Positions 12,314 through 13,833 of a stretch of 21,512 nt of DNA are shown in pieces. Each line of letters begins with the position of its first letter. The stretch's first letter is position 1. The position numbers and the translations under genes were made by a program. The stretch comes from a virus. Lineage: Duplodnaviria > Heunggongvirae > Uroviricota > Caudoviricetes. The DNA lies in the IMG/VR virus record IMGVR_UViG_2681813321_000021, one strand, 5' to 3'. The notes below the pieces were generated by a model, which had not been told where the DNA came from, ran no database searches, and worked only from the letters and a program-made list of their open reading frames with translations.

Positions 12314-12324
12314 CCCTATCTCAC
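12314..12324. repeat. 11-bp direct repeat CCCTATCTCAC, left copy, abutting the left inverted-repeat arm
   Basis: Exact 11-mer also at 13823-13833 in the same orientation, immediately outside the two inverted-repeat arms. Confidence 0.6.
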
Positions 12325-12475
12325 CAATGCCGTTCAGTTAGTTAAGGAATTGAGGTTCGATAGCCCGAACCTCGCGCAGAGGCAATATGACCGAAAGCCT
12401 GATTCCTTAATGCCCAAGATGAGTCTCTATTCATAAAAGCGCTTAACTACTCGACATTGGCGGTGTATCCCCCGC
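12325..12475. repeat. Left terminal inverted-repeat arm (~150 bp)
   Basis: Reverse complement of 13662-13822: roughly 90% identity over the outer ~110 bp by eye (CAATG...GTTAAGGAATTGAGGTTCGATAGCCCGAACCTCGCGCAGAGGCAA...GAGTCTCTATTCATA...), with weaker similarity inward. Confidence 0.7.
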
Positions 12476-12660
12476 ATTGTCTGAATGCCGCCTCTTACCT
12501 TTCGCGGTCAACTGACGACTTCTAGTTCTAGAACGCCTTGATTTTTTGTACTTGTACATTGAAAAATAACCATAAATTGTTAGCCTGTGCAGTAGACTCA
12601 GTGGCGGTAACTGGTCAGCATGAAGTGTAAAGTGAATAACGAAGCTCTAAAATTATAGGG

Positions 12661-12909
12661 ATGGTCATGAATAATAAGCTAAAGGTAATTGAGTTAAATA
12701 GTCTTGATCTGTTTCGTAAAGAATTACTAACTACTATAAAGCCAGAGAAAGTAGAGAAATTACTTAGATGGTATCTTCAATCATATGGCGGTGTTAATTT
12801 CAAGTTCGGTTATGACAGACCAATTTTTAGAGCGCGAAAGTGCCCAAATGAATGCGGATATAATAACATCAGTGAGATATATCCCCTCCACCAGAAAAAT
12901 GTAAAATAG
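12661..12909 (+). CDS. Hypothetical 82-aa ORF; probably the N-terminal part of a frameshifted RES-domain-like gene
   Basis: GGGATGG RBS. Ends at TAG 12907-12909. The downstream ORF is open in the -1 frame from 12876, so the two overlap. Confidence 0.45.
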   Translation: MVMNNKLKVIELNSLDLFRKELLTTIKPEKVEKLLRWYLQSYGGVNFKFGYDRPIFRARKCPNECGYNNISEIYPLHQKNVK

Positions 12910-12914
12910 GCCGA

Positions 12915-13493
12915 ATGAATGATGATGGACAAGCTATCTTCTATGGCGCTTATAGTATCGGAACAGCTTTAGCCGAAATTAATGCAAAAGAAGGGGATTA
13001 TGTTCACATAGCTCACTTTAAGATGCCGGAAAATTCAGAGTCTGGAATGCGATGTTTTGCTATCGGTGAGGTCTTTAATGTGTATCACGGTGTAAATACA
13101 ATTTCAATTGAAGTGTTTAATGAAATTCGCGACATCATTAGCAGAATTGGTAAGGACGACATCCGAGCTTTGCTATCATATTTGTATATGGATGCCCTTT
13201 CTGCTGAGTTGCTTAATAGTATCAATGCCCATGAGGTAAATTATATTTACTCAAGAATTTTTTGCCGTCTTCTTCTTGATAAATACCCTGATGTTGATGG
13301 CCTTATTTATCCTAGCGCTAAAATAAAAGGGGCCTCAAATATCGCTTTGCGCACAGAAACAGTTAAATCGAGAATGCATTTAGTTGCTAATCTTGTGTTT
13401 AAAGTAAATAAAATTTATCCATATGGAATAGTAGATTTCAGTATAGTAAAACAAGCCAAAGGACATACATCAGATGGGCGCATCGTTTGGTGA
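12915..13493 (+). CDS. RES-domain-like protein (putative ADP-ribosyltransferase/NADase-type toxin domain), probably disrupted
   Basis: The frame extends upstream to give ...KIGRMNDDGQAIFYGAYSIGTALAE..., resembling the RES G-R-x-N...Y.A.S...A..E block, and later ...DGLIYPSAKIKGASNIAL..., resembling the RES PS motif. The conserved Arg precedes the only ATG. Confidence 0.45.
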   Translation: MNDDGQAIFYGAYSIGTALAEINAKEGDYVHIAHFKMPENSESGMRCFAIGEVFNVYHGVNTISIEVFNEIRDIISRIGKDDIRALLSYLYMDALSAELLNSINAHEVNYIYSRIFCRLLLDKYPDVDGLIYPSAKIKGASNIALRTETVKSRMHLVANLVFKVNKIYPYGIVDFSIVKQAKGHTSDGRIVW

Positions 13494-13653
13494 GCCAAAC
13501 TTTTAGTTAGCTGATTGAAAAACCGATGCGTCAGTTTGCACTGCATGTGGTGTATGGGAAGCGCGGGCTTGTAGTGCAGGTCATTTCAGAAGAAGCTAAC
13601 GAGAAAGCTTAGACATACTGTGACTACTAAACAAGCAGAAAGCCCGTGTTTAT

Positions 13654-13673
13654 GGGGGGGAGGGGGGGGGGGG
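13654..13673. repeat. Homopolymeric tract G7-A-G12 inside the right inverted-repeat arm
   Basis: Counted directly. The equivalent position in the left arm (12466-12475) has only C5. Confidence 0.9.
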
Positions 13674-13822
13674 CAATCCACACAACAGGCGATGTCGATT
13701 AGTTAATACACTTGTATGAATAGAGACTCATTTTTGTGCATTAAGGAATCAGGCTTTCAGTCATCTTGCCTCTGCGCGAGGTTCGGGCTATCGAACCTCA
13801 ATTCCTTAACTGAACTACATTG
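13662..13822. repeat. Right terminal inverted-repeat arm
   Basis: Reverse complement of 12325-12475; see left arm. Confidence 0.7.
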
Positions 13823-13833
13823 CCCTATCTCAC
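13823..13833. repeat. 11-bp direct repeat CCCTATCTCAC, right copy
   Basis: Exact match to 12314-12324. Confidence 0.6.

Follow-up and report, generated by a model that had tools for sequence, protein, structure and literature searches.

Within a 21,512-nucleotide stretch of Escherichia coli DNA (the window; IMG/VR record IMGVR_UViG_2681813321_000021), which is a chromosomal P2-like prophage adjoining flk, the segment from 12325 to 13822 is very probably a non-autonomous transposable cassette, built on ends of the IS4 subgroup (IS4 family) of insertion sequences (ISs) and carrying a captured module with a RES-domain gene. A sequence-only reading had drawn attention to two inverted arms of about 150 bp at this place. 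A repeat scan of the window resolves them into a 78-nt core (12340-12417 with 13734-13811) that is 96% complementary, with extensions at 12416-12439/13711-13734 and 12325-12340/13807-13822, and a global alignment of both arms gives an alignable length of about 135-140 bp each. The inverted repeats are real, only shorter (about 135 bp alignable, not 150-160 bp); the start given for the right arm, 13662, takes in a poly-G tract that lies outside the repeat. The 11-mer CCCTATCTCAC directly abuts the outer side of both arms in direct orientation (Table 1). The segment thus has the layout of a mobile insertion cassette (MIC): IS-type inverted repeats around a gene that is not a transposase gene, no transposase inside and a target duplication outside.

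We compared a synthetic empty-site query with 5426 complete E. coli genomes. The uninterrupted site is contiguous in 124 of them, one being E. coli C7, which reads GATAAGGCACCCTATCTCACAGCTCTAAATGC, a single 11-mer between the same neighbors; strains without the element show the exact junction ...GGCACCCTATCTCACAGCTCTAAATG..., again with one 11-mer. The flanking repeat is therefore a genuine target-site duplication, as had been proposed, and the predicted empty site, in which the hok 3' region joins the zinc-ribbon side, is present verbatim. The duplication is perfect, and its 11 bp lie within the 10-13 bp of the IS4 subgroup. Filled sites occur in 66 of the 5426 genomes, always chromosomal and never on plasmids, once per genome, in the same orientation and at one and the same site, with exactly two arms in each genome. 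The element is rare, present in about 1% of complete E. coli genomes.

The surroundings of the insertion are those of a phage. Sheath, tube, tape-measure and gpU genes lie on the minus strand of the window; gpD, ogr and hok follow, and after them come the element, a zinc-ribbon gene, a VasI/TagO-like gene and, finally, flk of the host. In the deposited genome of phage Xuanwuvirus P88_4B11 the genes are arranged alike and the element lies between those for ogr and the integrase, which marks the stretch from hok to VasI as phage accessory DNA. Many plasmid hok loci lose their similarity to the window (12200-12324) exactly at 12324, where the left duplication ends; the insertion point of the cassette is therefore the very 3' edge of the hok module.

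To place the ends, we used the consensus CAATGCCGTTCAGTTAAGGA, which is unmutated in sister copies of the element and from which both window ends deviate: in the left arm the 4-bp GTTA at 12341-12344 is a tandem duplication not present in the family consensus, and the right terminal repeat, CAATGTAGTTCAGTTAAGGAAT, has TA in place of CC at positions 6-7 relative to both the consensus and the left end. Anchored at the terminus, the consensus agrees at 18/20 positions with the left inverted repeat (IRL) of IS4 of E. coli K-12 (from MG1655: IRL TAATGCCGATCAGTTAAGGA, right inverted repeat (IRR) TAATGCCAGTCAGTTAAGCA, 12-bp duplication), and at 19/20 with the IRL CAATGCCGATCAGTTAAGGA of an IS4-family IS on pO55 (E. 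coli O55:H7 CB9615). Scanning metagenomes for AATGCCGNTCAGTTAAGGAAT returned 37 loci; most are termini of ISs, about 1576 bp long, that begin with the same 22 nt as the consensus element end (22/22). Two of their transposases (L030 and L052; 411 and 421 amino acids) were tested; both contain Pfam Nterm_IS4 and DDE_Tnp_1, and one is 27% identical to InsG. The target duplications of these relatives measure 10, 11, 11, 12 and 12 bp: 11 bp for the pO55 IS (CCCGCTTCGCG, within a palindrome) and for an ISAeme15-like IS in Enterobacter hormaechei (CCCATAGTGGG), 12 bp for a Vibrio relative as for IS4, and 10 bp for one complete metagenomic copy. The IS4 subgroup is defined by ends of the form -AATR--------WTW---- and direct repeats of 10-13 bp (PMC2266710, Table 1), and in CAATGCCGTTCAGTTAAGGA positions 2-5 are AATG and positions 14-16 are TTA. 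Judged by these sequence matches, the ends, which the sequence-only reading could assign to no IS or transposon, are IS4-subgroup ends.

We made three further observations on the metagenomic ISs (L028-L064, JGI contigs). The 10-bp target often has a CTAAG/TTAGR-like motif directly beside the IS. Single contigs have left and right flanks from different IS copies, indicating chimeric assemblies. A few loci, L036, L038 and L041, look like short derivatives.

The absence of a transposase gene, also part of the earlier proposal, is borne out: neither the open reading frame (ORF) list nor tblastn with two IS4-type transposases revealed an IS4-type transposase or a remnant of one in the element, the sister elements or the window. 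Given that it does not encode the DDE transposase (Nterm_IS4 plus DDE_Tnp_1, YREK motif) of the subgroup, the element does not qualify as an IS and is classed as a derivative with IS4-type ends. Candidate helpers in trans, going by their ends, are IS4 itself, which is common (2687 of the 5426 E. coli genomes), and the pO55-type IS, whose ends are still closer.

The sister copies show that the cassette is found at more than one genomic site, as a MIC should be: it occupies at least three in different P2-like prophages, and a search for other arm copies, proposed as a check, recovered them with differing content. The first, L005, is a copy 88% identical to ours on a Quadragintavirus-like prophage contig; its end abuts CGCATTATGCG within a terminator hairpin, and its target site is empty in phage ESSI2_ev015 and in many E. 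coli genomes. In Enterobacter cloacae P2-like prophages (L010, L011), the left arm and RES gene directly follow the ogr terminator and the right arm has been lost. L019 is a complete copy of 2397 bp with consensus ends that holds an extra gene, encoding a 292-residue zinc-ribbon protein, beside RES. It lies in the ogr terminator of an Enterobacter-type P2-like prophage, inserted at the nucleotide used by L010 but turned the other way round; between its flanks, TCGTTTTTGCGA and CCGCTTTTGCGG, 9/12 positions agree, and the uninterrupted ogr terminator is found in Enterobacter phage ENT4.

With these loci in hand, an origin of the arms and the 11-mer by illegitimate recombination or inverted duplication during exchange of phage accessory (moron) genes, with the 11-mer as a microhomology junction, appears very improbable. 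P2-like phages do frequently swap accessory genes, by a mechanism that is debated (PMC13586616). However, the junctions fall exactly at the conserved IS4-type terminus at four different loci, the duplication is as long as that of enterobacterial IS4-subgroup ISs, and the empty site retains one intact 11-mer.

The ogr-terminator copies also bear on whether the segment is an invertible switch run by the serine DNA invertase of the prophage (window 937-1623 and 4150-4749) rather than a transposon. The invertase is encoded about 7.5 kb upstream, and the L010 and L019 cassettes lie at the same nucleotide in opposite orientations, as a switch would predict. However, all 66 of 66 E. coli genomes share one orientation; gix/hix-like cores are present only at 951 and 4077, beside the invertase genes, with none in the arms; and inversion cannot account for the direct repeat, the empty site or the IS4-type ends. 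A switch of the Gin/Hin/Cin type, which we find scarcely credible, was rejected on the missing core and the single orientation.

Several side observations concern the target sites. L010:4630-4668 and L019:2989-3030 abut the ogr terminator at an identical junction (…GCGG/CAATGCC) with their interiors opposite, either because one hairpin was targeted more than once or because recombination between the 140-bp arms inverted the interior. Several IS4-subgroup insertions, cassettes and autonomous ISs alike, are located within GC-rich palindromes or terminator hairpins (CCC-N5-GGG or a similar form) and have 11-bp duplications (L005:1181-1195, L009:195-225, L074:285-320, L075:337-348 and 1782-1793, L076:382-393). 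The window target CCCTATCTCAC has only the CCC half of this palindrome form.

The terminal 45 bp of the arms are 87-100% conserved between diverged copies, compared with 65-78% for the remaining arm. The subterminal hairpin is nested inside a fold-back pairing of TTAAGGAAT with ATTCCTTAA, and IS4-subgroup left ends have an analogous fold-back (TTAAGGATCGG...CCGATCCTTAA). An inward-facing 20-mer with the ...GTTAAGCG signature of IS4-subgroup right ends marks the inner edge of each arm, the point at which the two arms cease to be homologous; the chance expectation is 0.12 hits at 14/20 or better per 1.75 kb. Given that each arm has an IRL-type sequence as its outer end and an inward IRR-like sequence at its inner edge, the arms look like miniature IS4-type elements flanking the cargo, that is, like miniature inverted-repeat transposable elements (MITEs), and may have originated as such.

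A quite possible alternative, though one we do not favor, is that one IS4-type left end, consisting of the terminal repeat and about 110 bp of leader, is present twice in inverted orientation as the arms; the element would then be a mobile insertion cassette of the classical sort, bounded by long terminal repeats, and the inner 20-mers would be chance matches or secondary transposase-binding sites. The leaders of autonomous relatives, about 80-125 bp between repeat and transposase start, are of fitting size. The inner sites agree with the terminal repeat at only 13-15/20 positions, and one arm (L019 left) falls below 13/20. No solo 135-bp arm was found in the 5426 E. coli genomes, in 185,579 species-representative genomes (GTDB) or in IMG/VR; the solo miniature copies of a MITE composite are thus missing, which makes it less likely that the arms are MITEs. 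Against the alternative, arm-to-arm homology stops right at the inner 20-mers, and these carry the IRR-specific ...GTTAAGCG that also marks the pO55 and ISAeme15-like ISs at their right ends.

These two shortcomings, the degenerate inner sites and the lack of solo arms, also count against the transposable cassette as we describe it, and they are not alone. A perfect duplication with both ends visible exists only for the window insertion: that of L019 has decayed, L005 is cut by the contig end at the RES stop codon, and L010 is without a right arm. Among the enterobacterial IS4-subgroup elements searched, no autonomous IS shares the arms past the first 20-22 nt, and the parent IS was not found. 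No transposition has been observed.

The searches for arms gave a few other results. An exact-pattern scan of the species representatives picked up L017 and L018, which we rejected as chance matches of 20 nt that have neither the CAATGCC terminus nor the hairpin. Scans of IMG/VR returned four contigs only, three of them with the same insertion as the window. A distant blastn of the arm against 72,556 plasmids found only a weak, partial and diverged solo arm (TAATGCTGGTCAGTTAAGGAAATGAGGCCCG...) in Duffyella gerundensis (L065:4000-4090, plasmid NZ_CP072599.1), which keeps the hairpin through compensatory TT to CC and AA to GG changes; a second arm was not found within 20 kb downstream. This arm lies directly downstream of a hemagglutinin-repeat protein gene and upstream of genes whose annotated products are a polymorphic toxin and a VENN pre-toxin domain protein.

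The cargo is a module that also exists on its own. RES alone, or RES with its partner (85% identical), occurs without arms in Lelliottia and other islands, so the module is captured cargo; more distant RES relatives are found in varied mobile-element contexts with differing neighbors. The intact E. coli allele matches Pfam RES (PF08808; E=4.8e-12, 46.6 bits against a cut-off of 23.2) and keeps the invariant columns of the family, and a dN/dS (ratio of nonsynonymous to synonymous substitution rates) of 0.12-0.20 among cassette copies indicates purifying selection. Its structural model is confident (predicted local distance difference test score 88.7); the best matches, the Pseudomonas putida RES toxin and the NAD-binding fold of diphtheria toxin, are themselves weak (E=0.03), so that the model only weakly suggests a RES/ADP-ribosyltransferase-like fold for the protein, whose role may be that of an NAD+-degrading or ADP-ribosylating toxin. 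In PADLOC, NCBIfam, PHROGs and Protein Data Bank sequence searches, neither RES nor its partner received a name other than Pfam RES, and no Xre gene lies upstream of RES in any context seen.

In the window this cargo has decayed. RES had been described as the only coding content of the segment; it is the only intact-looking gene there, but it carries a -1 frameshift, with C4 in place of C5 at 12883-12886, and the 24-codon remnant of a second gene accompanies it. The frameshift is shared by P88_4B11, and RES is intact in the four other examined copies of the same insertion (L001, L004, L006, L007). The partner gene was lost by a deletion, window 13539/13540 corresponding to L019 1835/2733, and both terminal repeats are mutated, as described above. 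The window copy is probably immobile. Separately, the poly-G tract varies in length (6, 7, 8, 11 and 20) between otherwise near-identical strain copies and is absent from the corresponding position in L019; it may be slippage-prone DNA or sequencing noise, and has no apparent function.

Table 1. Features of the cassette and its flanks, in window coordinates.
Feature	Position	Strand	Remark
Left target-duplication copy, CCCTATCTCAC	12314..12324	.	3' edge of hok module
Left arm, MITE-like	12325..12459	+	about 135 bp
Left terminal IS4-type inverted repeat, CAATGCCGTTCAGTTA[GTTA]AGGAAT	12325..12350	+	
Subterminal hairpin, GAGGTTCG-ATAGCC-CGAACCTC	12352..12373	+	8-bp stem
Inward-facing IRR-like 20-mer, CAATGTCGAGTAGTTAAGCG	12440..12459	-	left-arm inner edge; 14/20 to terminal repeat
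Conserved 5' region (presumed promoter) of RES module	12541..12660	+	homology with arm-less RES loci begins at 12541
RES-domain gene, pseudogene in window	12661..13493	+	intact (275-277 amino acids) elsewhere
Deletion junction	13539..13540	.	about 900 bp of complete copy L019 (1836-2732) missing
3' remnant of 292-residue zinc-ribbon partner gene	13541..13612	+	24 codons including stop
Poly-G tract, G7 A G12	13654..13673	+	
Inward-facing IRR-like 20-mer	13690..13709	+	right-arm inner edge; 13/20
Right arm, MITE-like	13690..13822	-	about 133 bp
Right target-duplication copy	13823..13833	.	11 bp, same 11-mer

We propose the following history for the transposable cassette. Two inverted miniature arms of about 135 bp, each IRL-type at its outer end and, in degenerate form, IRR-type at its inner end, would have bracketed an ancestral cargo composed of the RES-domain gene with its own promoter and the 292-residue zinc-ribbon gene. 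An IS4-subgroup DDE transposase supplied in trans would have recognized both outer ends, presumably moving the unit by cut-and-paste. The unit would have entered the genome of a P2-like (Xuanwuvirus-type) phage close behind hok, in the accessory-gene stretch between ogr and attP/int, at a target cut with an 11-bp stagger, and CCCTATCTCAC was thereby duplicated. The cassette has since decayed, with loss of the partner, mutation of both terminal repeats and, in the window, a frameshift in RES, and would now be inherited passively with the prophage.

Beyond the cassette, Rfam at its gathering threshold gave no family anywhere in the window, and a promoter and terminator scan gave nothing above chance. 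Window 1-2814 and 3127-5940 form a 2814-bp direct repeat (99.86% identical, 3126-bp period) containing a second copy each of a serine DNA invertase gene, of gpU and of the 3' portion of the tape-measure gene; this may be a real tandem duplication or an assembly artifact around the invertible tail-fiber region. The first invertase ORF copy is a longer, TTG-started reading frame. The gpD-like ORF at 10052-11617 is unusually long, 521 amino acids from a TTG, with the GPD domain only at residues 243-501; in strain Trh52 the annotation of the matching region consists of a 266-residue fragment and a pseudogene, which suggests that the tail gene was rearranged or damaged.

The significance of the element lies in its location. 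Transposable elements are regarded as all but lacking in phage genomes; they are reported to be almost nonexistent in P2/P4 hotspots, and a 2026 survey of thousands of P2/P4 elements found that they could not be invoked for the swapping of accessory and defense genes (PMC13586616). The element is a counter-example: a cassette with verified hallmarks of transposition took a toxin-type gene to at least three positions in P2-like prophages, a rare case of transposon-delivered cargo inside a phage. Because it carries no transposase gene, a survey keyed on transposases would be expected to miss it. The finding also extends passenger-carrying cassettes, described only for the Bacillus IS231 subgroup (PMC2266710), to the IS4 subgroup and the Enterobacteriaceae. 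Its reach is limited, in that the element is rare and the window copy a fossil. It is conceivable, if on balance unlikely, that transposase-less IS4-type cassettes are an overlooked entry route of accessory or defense-type genes into P2-like phages, drawn to GC-rich terminator palindromes at module boundaries and invisible to transposase surveys, and that the ancestral RES and 292-residue zinc-ribbon genes formed a possibly new two-gene toxin or anti-phage module.

We found no description of this element in the literature searched, and it shares features with several known systems. Like the Xre-RES toxin-antitoxin systems (P. putida Res, MbcT, ParT), its cargo has the Pfam RES domain; in contrast to them it has no upstream Xre antitoxin, RES standing alone or with variable downstream genes, and the protein, of 275 amino acids, has an extra N-terminal helical region and an insertion. 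With IS4 (insG) and the pO55 IS the element shares the terminal 20 nt (18/20 and 19/20), duplications of 11-12 bp, and a left-end fold-back that pairs TTAAGGA with TCCTTAA; the pO55 IS and the ISAeme15-like IS lie in GC-rich palindromes (CCCGCTTCGCGGG, CCCATAGTGGG), as do the sister copies L005, L010 and L019. It differs from IS4 and the pO55 IS in that these are autonomous 1.43-kb ISs encoding transposase, with no detectable similarity to the arms past about 22 nt.

In MITE-flanked composites, two miniature non-autonomous copies bracket unrelated genes and move as a unit by their outer ends, as the arms of our cassette may do; the arms here derive from another transposon superfamily (the IS4 family) and are inverted, with no solo copies found. 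Integron mobilization units are one example of such composites. Another is provided by the Tn3-derived TIME-COMP elements (PMC4133298). MIC231 of Bacillus cereus (IS231 subgroup, IS4 family; Chen et al. 1999 and De Palmenaer et al. 2004, as cited in PMC2266710) likewise has IS-type terminal repeats around one or more passenger genes, no transposase and a target duplication of about 10-12 bp, and is presumed, as we presume for our element by analogy, to be mobilized in trans by a cognate IS4-family transposase. According to PMC2266710, such modularity had not been observed outside the IS231 subgroup. The cassette described here differs from MIC231 in its IS4-subgroup ends, its Enterobacteriaceae host and P2-like phage carrier, its arms of about 135 bp that resemble whole miniature elements, and its RES-domain cargo. 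Given that its ends fall in the IS4 subgroup, the vehicle is not of an undescribed type, as had been considered; it belongs to a known kind, the mobile insertion cassette or MITE-flanked composite.

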